Source: Mycoavidus cysteinexigens (lineage in GTDB: Bacteria; Pseudomonadota; Gammaproteobacteria; Burkholderiales; Burkholderiaceae). Taken from it: 64,000 nucleotides of DNA. Every line of letters starts with the position of its first letter. Within the stretch, counting starts at the first letter, position 1. The notes beneath the pieces were generated by a model. That model had not been told where the DNA came from, made no database searches, and saw only the letters and a program-made list of their open reading frames with translations. Shown in pieces: positions 9,646 through 48,406 of this stretch. The DNA lies in contig JASSUJ010000001.1 of NCBI GenBank assembly GCA_031963405.1, forward strand, positions 1,547,802 through 1,611,801, in the 5' to 3' direction. Position numbers and translations under genes: made by a program.

Positions 9646-10524
9646 ATGCAAAATATGCTTTATCCGGAACTCTACAAATCGCTCGAATCCGTTCGGTGGG
9701 ATATGGAAAAGGATATTCCATGGGATAAATTTGATGCGACACTGCTCTCCGATGAGCAAGCGGCCACCATCAAAATGAACGCGATTACCGAATGGGCCGC
9801 GTTGCCCGCCACCGAAATGTTCCTACGCGACAATCGCGAAGACAGCGATTTTTCGGCTTTTATGAGCGTATGGTTTTTTGAAGAACAAAAACATGCGCTA
9901 GTGCTGATGGAATATCTACGGCGCTTTCGGCCCGAATTTTTGCCAACGGAACAGGAACTGCATGAAGTGCGCTTTCCGTTTGATCCCGCCCCACCGCTAG
10001 AAACGCTAATGTTGCACTTCTGTGGTGAGATTCGCTTAAATCATTGGTATCGCTGCGCCGCTGAATGGCATACCGAGCCGGTCATCAAGCAAATTTACGA
10101 AACTATCTCACGCGACGAAGCACGGCATGGCGGCGCTTATTTGCGCTATATGAAAAAAGCGCTAGCGCGCTCCGGTGATATTGCGCGTGCGGCATTTGCA
10201 AAAATTGGTGTGCTCATGGCATCAGCGCGGCGCACCGATAAACCGCTACATCCCACTAACCTGCACGTTAACCGCACCCTTTTTCCGCGCGATACCGTGC
10301 AGTCCCGCCTGCCTGACCCAGAATGGCTGGAACACTGGCTTGATGAGCAAATTCGCTTTGACGCCACTTGGGAAAAAAAGGTGATCGAGCGTATTTTGCA
10401 TAATTTATCGCTGCTGTTTGAGCGTCCATTTGACACGGCGCAAGCACTTAACCGCTACCGCAAGGAAATCACGGCTCGCCTAGCGGAAAATGATGGCAAA
10501 GCGGATGAACTACAGCCGGTTTAA
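9646..10524 (+). CDS. Ferritin-like di-iron protein (acyl-ACP desaturase-like superfamily)
   Basis: 292 aa with two EExxH-type segments (FFEEQKHALV and SRDEARHGGAY), typical of ferritin-like di-iron carboxylate proteins. Confidence 0.65.
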   Translation: MQNMLYPELYKSLESVRWDMEKDIPWDKFDATLLSDEQAATIKMNAITEWAALPATEMFLRDNREDSDFSAFMSVWFFEEQKHALVLMEYLRRFRPEFLPTEQELHEVRFPFDPAPPLETLMLHFCGEIRLNHWYRCAAEWHTEPVIKQIYETISRDEARHGGAYLRYMKKALARSGDIARAAFAKIGVLMASARRTDKPLHPTNLHVNRTLFPRDTVQSRLPDPEWLEHWLDEQIRFDATWEKKVIERILHNLSLLFERPFDTAQALNRYRKEITARLAENDGKADELQPV

Positions 10525-10591
10525 TCGTACGGTGAAAGATTGCGTATTCGCTTATAACGCTCCAAACGCTGTATTTTTGCCTACTTATTAA

Positions 10592-11071
10592 ATGTCAGCT
10601 GCTTTCGAACGCAAAATTATTGACCGCGCCAGCCTCGCGGCTCGGCGCGCCTCTTTATCGGGCCCTGTGGTGTTTACCAACGGCGTCTTTGACATATTGC
10701 ATCGCGGTCATGTGACCTATCTAGACGCTGCACGTGCGCTGGGTGGTTGCCTCATTGTCGGCCTTAATACCGATGCCTCAGTACGGCAGCTTGGCAAAGG
10801 CAGCGACCGTCCGATTAACTCAGAAACAGACAGAGGCGCGCTCCTCGCCGCTCTAGAAAGCGTCGACTGGGTTGTCTGCTTTAACGAACCCACTCCCCTC
10901 GCTTTAATCCACGAACTCCACCCCGACCTACTCGTCAAAGGTGGCGACTACAACATGGACACGCTACCCGAAGCCGCGTTAGTACGCAGCTGGGCCGGCC
11001 ATGCCCTCACCATTCCATTCGAGCATCAACGGTCAACTACCGCACTGCTGCGTAAAGTACGGGAAAACTGA
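10592..11071 (+). CDS. hldC: D-glycero-beta-D-manno-heptose 1-phosphate adenylyltransferase (RfaE domain II)
   Basis: 159 aa cytidylyltransferase fold with FTNGVFDILHRGHVTYL (HxGH) and ...DLLVKGGDY. Confidence 0.85.
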   Translation: MSAAFERKIIDRASLAARRASLSGPVVFTNGVFDILHRGHVTYLDAARALGGCLIVGLNTDASVRQLGKGSDRPINSETDRGALLAALESVDWVVCFNEPTPLALIHELHPDLLVKGGDYNMDTLPEAALVRSWAGHALTIPFEHQRSTTALLRKVREN

Positions 11072-11084
11072 TCTTTTATTGGCT

Positions 11085-11627
11085 TTAAGCTAAATCCAAT
11101 TTCCTTTCTAATCGGCTAGGGGAGGCTTCTCCTTCCCACGTCATTACATATCCGATAAACGCGCTTAGAGCGGACTGCCCTCTTGTGGGCCTATTTTCAG
11201 ATTTAAGCGGTACTTCGGGAGCTGGGTATGTGCGTTGAGATTCAAGCAGTGCTTTAGAGGTTTGGTACCTACTTTGAGATTTAAGCGGTACTTCAGGAGC
11301 TGGGTATTTACTTCGGGGAGAAGAGGCTGCGTAGAGGTTAATTATTTCTTCTACTTCCACTTCCACAGCAAAGGGCTCAGAGATTTTTTTTCCTTCCAAT
11401 ATGCTTAATGTTTTGAGTATCTCTTCGTTTCTAGAGATAGCAAGTATGAGTGTCGGATCTAAGTTTTTATTTCGAGATAAAGTTTCATTTTTATAACCGG
11501 AAGAGAGAGGAGCAAGCAGCGGAGAACAAGCCTCTCTTCTAGAATGAAGATGAGATAACGAGCCGTCACGATCAGGAATGGGGGGGCGAGAGTTAGGATC
11601 AGGATAGGGTCCATAATTAATTCGCAT
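11085..11627 (-). CDS. AT-rich orphan protein with an internal repeat, candidate secreted effector
   Basis: 180-aa ORF in a visibly AT-rich block. It has an internal duplication (YPAPEVPLKSQSRYQ / YPAPEVPLKSENRPT) and an N-terminus MRINYGPYPDPNSRPPIP. A perfect PIP/hrpII box lies 138 bp upstream. I recognise no family. Confidence 0.6.
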   Translation of the reverse strand: MRINYGPYPDPNSRPPIPDRDGSLSHLHSRREACSPLLAPLSSGYKNETLSRNKNLDPTLILAISRNEEILKTLSILEGKKISEPFAVEVEVEEIINLYAASSPRSKYPAPEVPLKSQSRYQTSKALLESQRTYPAPEVPLKSENRPTRGQSALSAFIGYVMTWEGEASPSRLERKLDLA

Positions 11628-11764
11628 TACTTTATTCTCTTTTGTAAGATTGTTATATTTCTTGTCCAGCTCAAATATATTAATTGCTTTAAGCCGAGCA
11701 ACTCATCCTTAACTAAAATTTTCTATTAGTTTTACACGAGGAAAATTAGATTCTTTGCAAATCA

Positions 11765-11788
11765 CGAAGTAGCGTATGAACTCACGAA
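11765..11788 (-). promoter_or_regulatory. PIP/hrpII-type box TTCG-N16-TTCG
   Basis: The minus strand reads ttcgtgagttcatacgctacttcg (TTCGT-N15-TTCGT). It is about 138 bp upstream of the ATG at 11627 and in the gene's orientation. Confidence 0.6.
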
Positions 11789-12134
11789 AGGAGCAGATAG
11801 CAAGACAATAAATTCTCGCTACAGCTTGAGAAACCAAGATAAGAAAGTTGAGAAGCCAATATTGTTACTAGATTGATTTTTTACAAAATTGGCGTGGGAG
11901 TTGAATGGCAAGCTTTTGGTCTGTACTGCACAAAGCACTCTGGTTTATATGGCCTGGTTTGTTTTTTTGAAGTTTAAGGTGTAAGTTGTTTTTCTCTTCT
12001 ATATATAAATCGTTAAGAAATTTAATATATTATTAATATAGGTTAATGAAAATATCTTGAGGTAATTGTTTTGTTGGTTGAGTAAATTAAGAGTTGTGCA
12101 GTATCTTCATTTAAATTACATCGGTAAAAATTGT

Positions 12135-13337
12135 TTATTCGTGGTTTTCTATCACGCTTTGTCTGTAATATTTTTCGACCCAAGTCAATCCTTTCATCCT
12201 CCTCCAATCTGGTTCATTTTCACTCTCTCTTTGTTCTGAGTCTTCCGTTTTTTGTTGGTTAAGAGAGTTAGGTCTATCAGTATCATATTTTGTTGATTTG
12301 CTTGAATATGAATCTTTCTCAGATAAAGTTTTCTCTGCTGGTTCTGATTCTTCCGTTCCTTGATTGTTAAGAGAGTTAGCTCTATCAGTAGCATCTTTCT
12401 TTGCTTTAGATAATTTCTTTGCTTCGCTAATCATATTTTTTATATCTTGCACAGTAGTTGTCTCATAACTATTTTTATGTGCTAGATCAACGTCATATTT
12501 ATTTTTAAAAATATCCATTAGCACTGTGTTTGCTAAATTCATTTCTTCGCTGAACTTGTCTTTTGCTTGCTGTGAAATAGGGGTTTGATTTCTTGTCCAT
12601 CGAAGATAGGTATTGTTTTCATCTATTATTTGACCAATTAATACATAACCTTTTTGTGGTAATTCATCTATAAATGCATCAATATACGCTGTATTATTTT
12701 CTTTGCGATTAACAATTGCCCCGGTTTTTCTAATTATTGTATTAATGTATTCTGGATTTATTTTTCTAAATAAGAATTCACGTTTGAATTTTTTTATAAC
12801 TTCATATCGTTTTCTTTGAAGCTTCTCTATTGCTGCTTTTGTGTTGTCAACTTTAGTCTGCTCTAATAATTTTTCACTTTTCTTTAGATTCTGTTGAAAC
12901 TCGTCTTGTGCTTCATTAGGCTCCTCTTTTGACCGTATAGCTTCTTCTTTTTTTTCCAAATCGTCCTTTATCGCTTGTATAGCTTCTTCCTGCTGCGTCC
13001 AAAGTTCTTTTATTATTCTTATAGCTTCAGTTTCAATAGCTACGCCTTCTTTTTTTGTAATAAAAAAACTCCGCCATTTAGAAGACCAATTATTTAGCTC
13101 TGGCTGCTTTGTAGCGGCCTTTCTCTGATGCTGTGAAAAAGGAAAGATCGGTTTGCTCCGTAGGTTGTTTGCACTCTGTTTAACTGTATTTTTTAGTGAG
13201 ACAAGACTTCCTTTTATTTTGTTACGCGTGGTAGGGAAGGACGAAGGAGTAGTCCTTCCTGATGCTGATGTTTCTTTTTGGTACTGTTGATTTGGCTCTG
13301 TGCTATTTGTATTTTCGATACTTAGGGACGTTCGCAT
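12135..13337 (-). CDS. AT-rich orphan coiled-coil protein, candidate secreted effector
   Basis: 400-aa ORF. It has a Ser/Thr/Asn-rich N-terminus (MRTSLSIENTNSTEPNQ), a Lys/Glu-rich central coiled-coil-like region and a C-terminal duplicated segment (DATDRANSLNNQGTEESE / YDTDRPNSLNQQKTEDSE). A perfect PIP/hrpII box lies 236 bp upstream. Confidence 0.65.
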   Translation of the reverse strand: MRTSLSIENTNSTEPNQQYQKETSASGRTTPSSFPTTRNKIKGSLVSLKNTVKQSANNLRSKPIFPFSQHQRKAATKQPELNNWSSKWRSFFITKKEGVAIETEAIRIIKELWTQQEEAIQAIKDDLEKKEEAIRSKEEPNEAQDEFQQNLKKSEKLLEQTKVDNTKAAIEKLQRKRYEVIKKFKREFLFRKINPEYINTIIRKTGAIVNRKENNTAYIDAFIDELPQKGYVLIGQIIDENNTYLRWTRNQTPISQQAKDKFSEEMNLANTVLMDIFKNKYDVDLAHKNSYETTTVQDIKNMISEAKKLSKAKKDATDRANSLNNQGTEESEPAEKTLSEKDSYSSKSTKYDTDRPNSLNQQKTEDSEQRESENEPDWRRMKGLTWVEKYYRQSVIENHE

Positions 13338-13572
13338 GGCGTCCTCCTATAAAAGCGTAGATTAATTTTTTTAGGCAGCGCATGAATGCTGTTTTAAGCC
13401 AATTAGCACGGACTTAAATAAGCGTTAAATCAATCGAGAGCAAGACGGTTTGATGTAGATCGCGTGCCTATATGGCACAAAGGCATGACGCGCCCGCCCA
13501 GTTGATTCAGCATTTTCTTAAGCGGAGCTTTTTATATTTTTATACTGATTCAGTTAGATTTCTCTGAAAGCA

Positions 13573-13596
13573 CGAAATGGCAGATGCTTAAGCGAA
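13573..13596 (-). promoter_or_regulatory. PIP/hrpII-type box TTCG-N16-TTCG
   Basis: The minus strand reads ttcgcttaagcatctgccatttcg (TTCGC-N15-TTCGT), about 236 bp upstream of the ATG at 13337. Confidence 0.55.
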
Positions 13597-13646
13597 ATTA
13601 TCTGTAACAAAAGATAAGTTTTAGTTTGAGAGCTTGAAATGTTGCG

Positions 13647-14495
13647 CTAAGCGCAACAAGTAGCATCGCGTGCGATTAAGGCTAATCCTGAGAGTACGAG
13701 GTGCTCGTGATAGGTATAAGGAATAGTGAGACGTTGGGCGACTTCAGCGGCGCTGCCGCCGCTTAAGACACAGCGCGGGATGGTGTTAAGTTGTTGATGC
13801 AGGTCGCGCCAGGCACGCTCGATAAGTGCAGCTTGGGCGAGCAGACAGCCTTCGCTGACAGCTGCTTTTGTGTCGCGAGCGAAGCGTGTTGTGTTGCTGC
13901 CATGCGGTAAAGTGGGAGTGGCAGCAGGAGTGAGCGTGGGAAGTTGTGCTGTGTATTGGCCAAGCGCCTGCATCATCAGCGTGGCGCTAGCAGCGATTAG
14001 CCCACCACTGAAGGTGCCGTTTGCATCCAGGCTTTCGAGTGTGGTGGCAGTGCCAAGCGTAGCGAGCAGGAGCGGTTCGTCAGGATAGGTGGCGCGTGCG
14101 CCGATTAAACCTGCCCAGCGGTCACTGCCAAGCTGCTGAGGTTGGTGATAAAGGTTGGTGACGCCGCATTGGTATGGCTGCGCACTGATGATATGCCGCG
14201 GTGTATGCGGCCAGTGTTGGCTAATGAGCTCGCTCAGCCGTTGCTCAACGGCGTTGCCAGCAACGTTTGAAATCCACACGCTATGTGGGGCAGGGAGTGC
14301 CGACCAATCAGGTGCGGTTGGCATTGCTAAAGCAGGCAATGTTGTGCTGGGTGGTGAATGCGCATGCGCAAAGGTGCCAAGCGCACTGCGCTCGCCGCTG
14401 GCGCTAATGAGAGCCCATTTAACACAACTATTGCCAGCGTCAATAAGTAAAAAAAAGTCGTCAACACACGCGGCCGATAAGCTACTGGGCTTCAT
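13647..14495 (-). CDS. coaX: Type III pantothenate kinase
   Basis: Baf/CoaX family with LLIDAGNSCVKWAL near the N-terminus. The ATG at 14495 overlaps the birA stop as ATGA. An alternative ATG lies at 14513. Confidence 0.85.
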   Translation of the reverse strand: MKPSSLSAACVDDFFLLIDAGNSCVKWALISASGERSALGTFAHAHSPPSTTLPALAMPTAPDWSALPAPHSVWISNVAGNAVEQRLSELISQHWPHTPRHIISAQPYQCGVTNLYHQPQQLGSDRWAGLIGARATYPDEPLLLATLGTATTLESLDANGTFSGGLIAASATLMMQALGQYTAQLPTLTPAATPTLPHGSNTTRFARDTKAAVSEGCLLAQAALIERAWRDLHQQLNTIPRCVLSGGSAAEVAQRLTIPYTYHEHLVLSGLALIARDATCCA

Positions 14496-15403
14496 TCGCC
14501 TGGCTCCGAGCATGATTTCTGCGCAGAGTCTTCTGTTGGGCTTAGGCGTAGCGAGAGGTCTCCGCTGGCAATTGGCTTAATACCGCTCTCACTCTCTAGT
14601 AGCAAACGGCCTATTGAGTCGATGCCAAGCGCAATACCATGTGTGCTTGCTAAACCGCCCTCTAGCAACGTGACACGCTTGCCTGCATAAGCGTGGGCTG
14701 CATTCCATGCGTCTTGGAAAGGCGCAAATCCTTCTACGCTAAAACGTGTAAGCATGGCGGCGAGCGCATTTAGCAAAGCAGCAAAAGTATCCGTCATAGA
14801 AAGGGTCGGCAACAAACGCGCAAGCGCGGCTGGCTGGTTTATACGAGGTGAGGAGGACTTGAGCTCATCTAAATGTTGAGCGAGCGTATCCTCGCCATAA
14901 AGATTAAGACCAATGCCGATCACAGCAGCGCTGGAAGCAGGGGTATGCCAAGCAGTTTCGATCAAGATACCGGCGAGTTTGGCACCATCGAGTAGCACGT
15001 CATTAGGCCACTTCAAGGCTAGCCGCTGTGGTTCAGCCAACGGCAGCGTACGCAACCCGGCAAGCAGCGCTGTTCCAGTGGCGAGGCTTAAGCCCGCCAA
15101 TTCATGAATGGGGCGGGGTATCAAATAAGCAATAGAAAAAAGCAGTGCATTACCGCTCAACCCAAGCCAGCTGCGCCCAAGCCTGCCCCGACCTTGCGTT
15201 TGCGAATAAGCTAAGCGCGCTAGCGGCCGGCTAAACTCGTCCTGCTGGGTGCGCCAGCGCGTGATTAAATCCGTATTGGTGGAGCCGGTTTCGTTAACAA
15301 TTTCTAGTGTGAACTGACGTGCGCGCTCACTGAGCTGATGAGAAAGCTGTATCGGGTCGAGGCGGCGCTTGGCGCGGTCGGTAGAAGAGGAAGAAGCCAC
15401 CAT
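14492..15403 (-). CDS. birA: Biotin--[acetyl-CoA-carboxylase] ligase
   Basis: BPL/LPL catalytic-domain motifs are present (QTQGRGRLGRSWLG, KWPNDVLL). I chose the ATG at 15403. The track ORF starts at the GTG at 15454. Confidence 0.85.
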   Translation of the reverse strand: MVASSSSTDRAKRRLDPIQLSHQLSERARQFTLEIVNETGSTNTDLITRWRTQQDEFSRPLARLAYSQTQGRGRLGRSWLGLSGNALLFSIAYLIPRPIHELAGLSLATGTALLAGLRTLPLAEPQRLALKWPNDVLLDGAKLAGILIETAWHTPASSAAVIGIGLNLYGEDTLAQHLDELKSSSPRINQPAALARLLPTLSMTDTFAALLNALAAMLTRFSVEGFAPFQDAWNAAHAYAGKRVTLLEGGLASTHGIALGIDSIGRLLLESESGIKPIASGDLSLRLSPTEDSAQKSCSEPGE

Positions 15404-15529
15404 GCAAGGCGTAGAGTAATGGTCACGGATTGAAAGCCACTCACTTATCCGCACACAGATAGGGGCGCGGTTGGGTGAGGCGAAAAAACCCCCACATATT
15501 ACCTATATGCTATGGTCTCTGCACAGCTT

Positions 15530-47041: not shown

Positions 47042-48406
47042 ATGTTTGAAAAGATCCTAATTGCTAACCGTGGCGAGATTGCGCTGCGTATTCAGCGCGC
47101 CTGCCGTGAGCTTGGCATAAAAACCGTTGTGGTCTATTCGGAAGCTGACAAAGAAGCCAAGTATGTGCGCCTGGCCGATGAGGCTGTGTGCATTGGCCCG
47201 GCTGCATCAGCGCTTTCTTATCTGAATATGCCGGCCCTTATCAGTGCGGCTGAAGTTACCGATGCTGAAGCGATTCATCCTGGCTATGGCTTTCTCTCAG
47301 AAAATGCCGATTTTGCTGAACGCGTTGAGCAATCTGGCTTTACTTTTATTGGGCCGAGACCAGAAACGATTCGTTTAATGGGCGATAAAGTTTCTGCCAA
47401 GCAAGCCATGATTAGAGCTGGTGTGCCTTGCGTGCCTGGCTCCGAAGGCGCATTGCCTGAGGATCCGAAAGAGGTGAAGAAGATTGCGCGGGAAATCGGT
47501 TACCCCGTGATTATTAAAGCGGCAGGCGGTGGCGGCGGGCGTGGTATGCGCATTGTGCATACGGAAGCGGCTTTGATTAATGCGGTCAGTATGACGCGGC
47601 AAGAAGCGGGCGCTGCATTTGGTAATCCCCAAGTGTATATGGAGAAATTCCTCGAAAATCCGCGCCATATCGAAATTCAAATACTCGCAGACAAACATAA
47701 AGGGGCAATTTGGCTGGGCGAGCGCGACTGCTCGATGCAGCGCCGCCACCAAAAAATTATTGAAGAAGCACCAGCCCCGCACATTCCGCGGCGTTCCATT
47801 GAGCGCTTAGCAACCCGCTGTGCAGATGCGTGCAAGAAGATGGGCTACCTGGGCGCGGGTACCTTCGAATTTCTCTATGAGGATAATGAGTTTTACTTTA
47901 TCGAGATGAATACGCGGGTGCAGGTTGAGCACCCGGTGACGGAGATGATTACCGGTTTTGATATCGTCCAAGCGCAAATTCTTGTAGCGGCTGGTCAACG
48001 CTTGCCTAAGCAGCGCGAGGTTACGTTTAATGGCCATGCGATTGAGTGCAGGATTAACGCGGAGCACGCGGTCAAATTCACGCCTTCTGCGGGCCTCATT
48101 ACCTTACTGCATGCGCCGGGTGGCCCAGGGATTCGGGTGGATTCGCACGCTTACACAGGCTATTTTGTGCCGCCGCACTATGACTCGATGATTGGCAAAG
48201 TCATTGCCTACGGCGCCACGCGTGAGCAAGCGATTAAACGGATGCGCATCGCGCTCTCCGAGATGGTCGTTGAAGGCATTTATACGAATATCCCCCTGCA
48301 CCGTGAGCTGATGTTGGATGCGAAATTCGTTGAAGGCGGTACCAGCATCCATTATCTAGAAAATAAAATGGCGGCCAATCAGCAAGCAGCGTTAGAAAAG
48401 GTGTAA
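47042..48406 (+). CDS. accC: Acetyl-CoA carboxylase biotin carboxylase subunit
   Basis: 454 aa with [17 protein letters not shown], the ATP-grasp loop [13 protein letters not shown] and [14 protein letters not shown]. Confidence 0.95.

Follow-up and report, generated by a model that had tools for sequence, protein, structure and literature searches.

The 64-kb window analysed here (64,000 nt of the Mycoavidus cysteinexigens genome, a single contig of 2.44 Mb with a mean G+C of 46.6%) carries at positions 11085-13646 an AT-rich islet of two orphan genes, which we interpret as candidate type III effectors controlled by an HrpB-type regulator. The islet is bounded on the left by hldC, encoding D-glycero-beta-D-manno-heptose 1-phosphate adenylyltransferase (10592-11071, plus strand; TIGR02199, rfaE domain II, 188.5 bits, above the cut-off), and on the right by coaX, encoding a type III pantothenate kinase (13647-14513, minus strand; PF03309 Pan_kinase, E 5e-42), behind which lies birA (14492-15454, minus strand). 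Both flanks are conserved: hldC is 86-91% and coaX 79-81% identical to the counterparts in G001 and G006, the species genomes closest to this one. An earlier note on this DNA had described a sharp fall in G+C between hldC and coaX and, within it, two co-oriented orphan open reading frames (ORFs) of 180 and 400 amino acids (aa) separated by about 0.5 kb of AT-rich spacer, and both descriptions hold. The G+C of the islet is 36.1% against 52-59% for the flanks, with the lowest values, 29-31%, at 12000-12850, and the two frames, ORF-A (11085-11627) and ORF-B (12135-13337), both lie on the minus strand, 507 bp apart, with 30.8% G+C in the gap. By G+C the islet falls within the lowest ~1.8% of 2.5-kb windows of the genome, as one of about 39 such low-GC regions. 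The G+C at third codon positions (GC3) of its genes is 0.26-0.33 (0.33 in ORF-A) compared with 0.45 for the genome, which places them among the lowest 2-7% of genes by GC3 and G+C.

Each of the two genes is preceded by its own PIP/hrpII box, as had also been claimed from the letters alone; both boxes are perfect matches to TTCG-N16-TTCG, on the strand of the gene and in non-coding DNA. The box of ORF-A, TTCGTGAGTTCATACGCTACTTCG (11788-11765, minus strand), lies 137 bp ahead of the ATG, and that of ORF-B, TTCGCTTAAGCATCTGCCATTTCG (13596-13573, minus strand), 235 bp ahead. Downstream of each is a hexamer resembling a -10 element: TAAAAC (11729-11734, minus strand), 30 nt past the ORF-A box and inside TGTAAAACT, a block kept in four lineages, and TATAAA (13539-13544, minus strand), 28 nt past the ORF-B box. 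The lineages compared here and below are the window genome, G001, G006 and a fourth lineage represented by Logan assemblies of three runs. A sigma-70 scan found no consensus promoter ahead of ORF-A or ORF-B, a terminator scan at the islet found nothing exceeding the shuffle expectation, and an Rfam scan of 10500-14000 at E<=0.1 returned no match. The 5' leader of ORF-B contains a 55-nt stretch (13482-13536) that is 80% identical to genome positions 1721297-1721347; this stretch, which contains the palindrome GTGCCATATAGGCAC and sits in a segment of about 100 nt that is absent from G001 and G006, is possibly a piece of some small repeat element.

Promoters at the islet have been retained to a degree that the genes behind them have not. 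Across G001, G006 and the Logan lineage, changes in the ORF-A box are confined to spacer positions 7-9 and 12, and across all four lineages both half-sites of the ORF-B box are invariant while 10 of its 16 spacer positions vary. Taking both boxes over the four lineages, none of the 16 half-site positions varies, whereas only 18 of the 32 spacer positions are invariant (Fisher p 0.001). Nucleotide similarity among lineages is 70-79% over the box, the -10 region and the 5' untranslated region (5'UTR), ends at each ATG, and picks up again at the hldC stop codon. Scanning metagenomes for the pattern of the ORF-A box returned 0 matches.

At the scale of the window the boxes are uninformative, since their number (4, against 2.7 expected) is not above chance, and a spacing control was therefore run across the genome. 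TTCG-N16-TTCG occurs 96 times; the other spacings from N8 to N25 show only a 3-nt codon periodicity. On the basis of crude gene calling, 49 of the N16 boxes fall in intergenic DNA and 44 point towards a gene start no more than 320 bp away, compared with 1-8 such boxes at every other spacing in that range. In 27 of the 44 promoters a YANNNT hexamer stands 31-32 nt past the box, where its frequency peaks; 32 promoters have it within 29-33 nt, over a background of 0-5 per position. TTCG-N16-TTCG is thus a genuine, conserved cis-regulatory element in this genome, and the approximately 44 promoter-oriented boxes make up a dispersed regulon. Two further boxes in the window, 24320-24297 and 45787-45764 (both minus strand), lie ahead of a 321-aa ORF and a 180-aa ORF. 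Elsewhere, four tandem genes of 300-576 aa (C1:1349995-1355975), each with its own hrpII box, look like a paralogous candidate-effector family, and their promoters have a downstream block, AAAAAGTTTAGTCTGARRGC, in common with the box promoters at 47311 and 2423224.

The genes behind these boxes differ from the rest of the genome in composition. Compared with 1892 other ORFs, the 44 box genes have about twice the serine in their first 50 residues (15.4% against 7.9%, p 2e-13), more S+T+P+N+Q over the same residues (40% against 27%, p 2e-15) and fewer hydrophobic residues at their N-termini; their G+C is lower (41% against 47.5%, p 1e-13), as is their GC3 (0.36 against 0.45, no p value), and they are 3.5-fold enriched within the low-GC regions. 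At the N-terminus, box genes as a class have a composition that is typical of type III substrates. An hrpII box together with an N-terminal export pattern forms the standard criteria for predicting type III effectors in Ralstonia (PMC9945535). Both islet proteins have the export-signal composition (rich in serine and polar residues, not hydrophobic, no Sec signal), ORF-A more weakly: the first 50 residues of ORF-B comprise 18% Ser and 56% S+T+P+N+Q (99.8th genome percentile), those of ORF-A 14% and 38% (86th-88th percentile).

The genome also encodes a suitable regulator and a secretion system bearing the same box. One of only two AraC-family genes, P0003 (476 aa, genome positions 1015286-1016716), matches over its full length the AraC-family gene located between hrcT and hrcC on Ralstonia megaplasmids (33% identity, E 5e-70); because this is the position of hrpB, we take P0003 to be an HrpB homologue. 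It is conserved at 71-89% in all seven species genomes of the genus and is adjoined by an HrpG-like, OmpR-type response regulator of 244 aa. The HrpG-like/HrpB-like pair (C1:1014159-1016716) lies about 1 Mb from the cluster of the T3SS (type III secretion system), and around it are several box-bearing genes, including a 1226-aa ORF at 1008989-1012669. The cluster itself, at 2.06-2.08 Mb and about 0.5 Mb from the islet, contains an SctV gene (genome positions 2066529-2068583; TIGR01399, 880 bits) together with ORFs of the sizes of hrcU, V, R, Q, J, N, T and C, arranged in divergent operons with one hrpII box each (2069646, plus strand, and 2069741, minus strand). The genome has two SctV genes, both above the hrcV cut-off, and hence two injectisome loci; the second (C1:1144066-1145976, L002) has no hrpII box within about 25 kb.

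ORF-A is predicted to be a mostly disordered, Pro/Ser-rich protein: its AlphaFold2 (AF2) model has a mean predicted local distance difference test score (pLDDT) of 51.2 and a predicted template modelling score of 0.16. A frame of 180 codons has a chance probability of about 3e-5 at islet composition. The peptide YPAPEVPLKS, noticed earlier as occurring twice, is borne out in the DNA as two 40-nt units (11190-11229 and 11268-11307, minus strand) that are 93% identical and spaced 78 nt apart. Three matches to PxxPx[KR], the class-II consensus for SH3 ligands, occur in ORF-A (PPIPDR at residue 15; PEVPLK at residues 111 and 137), and at least three are found in just 2 of 1936 proteins of the genome, ORF-A being one of the two.

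ORF-B is the founding member of a Mycoavidus-only family defined by profile and sequence searches. Its ATG is preceded 7 nt upstream by the Shine-Dalgarno sequence AGGAGG. The structure model (overall pLDDT 49.7), read together with composition and the family alignment, suggests a disordered N-terminus rich in Ser, Thr, Asn and Gln (residues 1-106), a Lys/Glu helical hairpin (residues 85-193), a small alpha/beta domain (residues 206-326, pLDDT 60-80) holding the conserved core FRKINPE...YVLxGQ..D....YLRW, a disordered C-terminus containing a repeated unit of 36 aa, and the tail motif PDW...W. The long Lys/Glu-rich helical region described for this protein is supported by its content of Lys (12%) and Glu (10.7%) as well as by the modelled helices, and the duplication encoding D(A/T)DR(A/P)NSLN... 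twice is present in the DNA as two 76-nt units (12224-12299 and 12332-12407, minus strand) that are 82% identical and spaced 108 nt apart.

That neither protein resembles a known family stands after wider searching: ORF-A and ORF-B have no match in Pfam or NCBIfam, and each used as a query among 5.8 billion (5.8e9) proteins retrieved only itself. A profile search of 1.84 billion representative proteins returned only a handful of Mycoavidus proteins of the ORF-B family, and a Pfam scan of all five members of that family at E<=1 gave scattered coiled-coil noise. A PDB profile search with the family alignment had 0 matches at E<=1, and the best Foldseek hit of the islet-protein models in the PDB (E 0.13, TM ~0.1) is meaningless. 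We detected no homology of either protein to a known effector family or eukaryote-like domain, the short PxxPx[KR] motifs of ORF-A being all of that kind, and no paralogues of the islet genes were found in their own genome.

The islet is not peculiar to one strain. G001 and G006 have the identical gene order speG-birA-coaX-[2.6-2.8 kb]-hldC-desaturase, with flanking proteins 75-94% identical to those of the window genome, and in the Logan lineage speG-birA-coaX is again followed by box-ORF-box-ORF. The ORF-B frame is open at 400-508 aa in all four lineages; its positional orthologues (439-508 aa) retain the core and the tail motif at an identity of only 24-29%. The positional counterparts of ORF-A form a separate three-member family, 41-81% identical to each other. 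Membership of ORF-A in that family was considered and is not demonstrable (hhalign probability 2.6%, BLASTP E 0.09, not retrieved by a profile search); the PPIPxR motif is a feature common to the ORF-A proteins. The suggestion of rapid lineage-specific evolution is supported, with ORF-B at 24-29% and ORF-A lacking detectable homology to its counterparts between flanks that are 75-94% identical.

Substitution rates by the Nei-Gojobori method show the same disparity. Nonsynonymous divergence (dN) is 0.04-0.14 in the flanks, with dN/dS (omega) of 0.05-0.19, and reaches 0.75-0.80 in ORF-B between the window genome, G001 and G006. Because synonymous divergence (dS) is saturated between the window genome and its relatives, dN/dS is unreliable there, and only pairs among G001, G006 and the Logan lineage are usable; where dS is unsaturated, omega of the islet genes is 0.35-0.6, which indicates that they are under constraint, but far less so than their neighbours. 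Overall, change in the coding sequences of the islet is 6-12 times faster than in the flanks. Within 3 kb of the Logan lineage (L027-L029, compared with L016 and L017) the genes also disagree on their closest relative: coaX (92%) and ORF-A (81%) are G001-like, while ORF-B is only 29% identical to that of G001 and 50% to that of G006. Such disagreement suggests recombination or old allele classes.

Taken together, these observations suggest that the islet consists of two HrpB-controlled, very fast-evolving candidate type III effectors, a reading to which, translocation included, we assign a probability of about 0.6. The regulatory part is firmer, and on the strength of the boxes and the genomic control both genes very probably belong to the HrpB (hrpII-box) regulon, a functional conclusion absent from the first description of the islet. 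As a mechanism, we envisage two independently transcribed genes in the HrpB regulon of a Mycoavidus endosymbiont of Mortierellaceae fungi. Inside the host, or on contact with it, HrpG would activate HrpB, which would bind each box and drive transcription from the weak -10-like element located some 30 nt downstream; starts are predicted near 11722 for ORF-A and 13532 for ORF-B, about 7 nt beyond these elements, with 5' leaders of approximately 95 nt and 195 nt respectively. The disordered, polar N-termini would then be recognised by the HrpB-co-regulated T3SS at 2.07 Mb and the proteins delivered into the fungal cytoplasm, so that both are probably injected into the host fungus. There ORF-A could act as a linear-motif mimic, docking on host SH3 scaffold proteins through its three PxxPx[KR] motifs, and ORF-B could act on a host target through its coiled-coil hairpin and small alpha/beta domain.

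Several observations weigh against this interpretation. A strict YANNNT at 29-33 nt is missing from both islet promoters, which places them among the 12 of 44 box promoters of this kind. In its N-terminal composition ORF-A is only moderately unusual (88th percentile), and its residue 10 is acidic. The motif PxxPx[KR] is short, and a single duplication accounts for two of its three copies in ORF-A. Given low-confidence structure models (pLDDT 50-51) and fold searches that came back empty, the proposed host targets of both proteins are conjecture. Finally, some HrpB-regulated genes of Ralstonia encode proteins that are not translocated.

This last point leads to the alternative that the islet genes belong to the HrpB regulon without being effectors, and encode instead secreted helpers, regulators, chaperone-like T3SS factors or some unrelated HrpB-controlled function. 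The evidence for regulon membership is identical under this alternative, HrpB in Ralstonia also controls non-effector genes, and some of the 44 box promoters here drive structural T3SS operons, namely those at 2069646 and 2069741. However, accessory and structural T3SS proteins are usually conserved between close relatives, and the islet genes are the least conserved in their neighbourhood; they also lie 0.5 Mb away from the T3SS cluster, and disordered polar N-termini, coiled coils and proline-based linear motifs are typical of translocated proteins. We consider a non-effector role unlikely. A further step down in probability, and very unlikely in our judgement, is the view that these are non-functional remnants or chance frames in a decaying AT-rich spacer of a reduced genome, with the boxes as relics. 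Orphan status, very low G+C, disordered models and the lack of demonstrable homology between ORF-A and its counterparts are all compatible with decay. Yet a frame of 400 codons has a chance probability of about 7e-14 at ~34% G+C, ORF-B has kept an open frame and a conserved core in four lineages, its omega is below 1 and its Shine-Dalgarno sequence is strong, and the promoters, with their invariant box half-sites, are more conserved than neutral DNA.

The base composition of the islet (G+C 36%, GC3 0.26-0.33, in the lowest 2-7% of genes) also invites the explanation that this strain recently received, between hldC and coaX, a foreign island whose donor was AT-rich, and the same junction is tight in other genera of the family: in 12 of them the two genes are neighbours that converge, with 25-1075 bp between them. 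The interval of 2.6-2.8 kb is specific to the Mycoavidus subclade of the window genome; in a more distant Mycoavidus clade the two genes lie on different contigs. The earlier note's description of the islet as inserted is thus justified at this deeper level, and is largely refuted as a recent event. The same islet with the same promoters is present in three other lineages, whose flank dS is saturated (>1) relative to the window; between hldC and coaX there is no integrase, transposase or other mobility gene and no tRNA, and the only border repeat is a weak one of 20 nt, 80% identical (D7). No homologue was found outside Mycoavidus among 5.8e9 and 1.84e9 proteins that might indicate a donor, and the box regulon as a whole is low in G+C. 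Horizontal acquisition, in the sense of recent import, is accordingly not supported, and we regard a recent island as extremely unlikely. Because the junction is tight in 12 other genera, the islet appears to be an old insertion or an expansion in situ, and old acquisition and in-situ origin fit alike. The best reading of its low G+C and extreme divergence is weak constraint or diversifying selection under AT-biased mutation, with no recent import. In the distant clade, genome G003 has a 545-aa Ser-rich ORF directly after coaX, at the place of the islet (L018:6415-8052), with four copies of a repeat of about 30 aa (EDRKTFSAMMKEN.Y.LSKTVEEF.KFQSQ) but not preceded by an exact hrpII box; in the same genome birA and coaX have two small membrane ORFs inserted between them.

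Returning to the interpretation as HrpB-controlled candidate effectors, we tentatively raise a further possibility, doubtful as it is, that the two HrpB promoters are conserved 'expression slots' whose coding cargo turns over. This idea follows from the end of sequence similarity at both start codons and from the lack of demonstrable homology between ORF-A and its slot counterparts in three sister lineages, a pattern consistent with replacement or with birth from AT-rich DNA. For ORF-B, the discordance between the Logan-lineage gene and its flanks would suggest recombinational exchange, or long-lived allele classes, among strains living in different fungi.

In the literature searched we found no connection between the hrpII box and Mycoavidus. 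The genomic control places the islet within a delimited group of about 40 HrpB-type promoters, from which candidate effectors of a fungal endosymbiosis can be listed concretely. The islet illustrates cleanly how promoters can be better conserved than the genes behind them. It also provides two small, tractable proteins with which to ask which fungal processes the symbiont targets. For general biology, the kind of gene and the kind of regulon are those to be expected.

The promoter architecture has precedents in plant pathogens. A bipartite box followed by a -10 element has been described for both Xanthomonas PIP-box and Ralstonia hrpII-box promoters, and in the PIP-box promoters controlled by HrpX of Xanthomonas two TTCG half-sites are followed by a -10-like YANNNT about 30-32 bp downstream. 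The YANNNT spacing peak of 31-32 nt in Mycoavidus agrees with this, and the base after each half-site of the Mycoavidus boxes is mostly C or T. Unlike the Xanthomonas promoters, the two islet promoters have only a near match to the -10 element, and the organism is a betaproteobacterial endosymbiont. There is also a likeness to HrpB-regulated effector genes of Ralstonia: TTCG-N16-TTCG stands in promoter orientation, here 35-310 bp before the ATG, the AraC-type HrpB homologue matches over its full length, and the genes are dispersed and monocistronic with Ser/Pro-rich N-termini (PMC9945535; PMC11261895). The differences are that the host of Mycoavidus is a fungus and not a plant, that the islet proteins have no similarity to known effector families, that the G+C of the islet is below the genome mean and not merely atypical, and that the HrpG/HrpB pair of Mycoavidus lies about 1 Mb from its T3SS cluster. 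A further parallel is with the related endofungal Mycetohabitans, whose secreted, TAL-like Btl effectors have the same box upstream, within about 200 bp, and often escape secretion-signal predictors (PMC11261895). The islet proteins have neither TAL repeats nor any sequence relationship to Btl, and their hosts are Mortierellaceae and not Rhizopus; what the two systems have in common is a set of effectors, candidates in the case of the islet, encoded behind an hrpII box in endofungal Burkholderiaceae.

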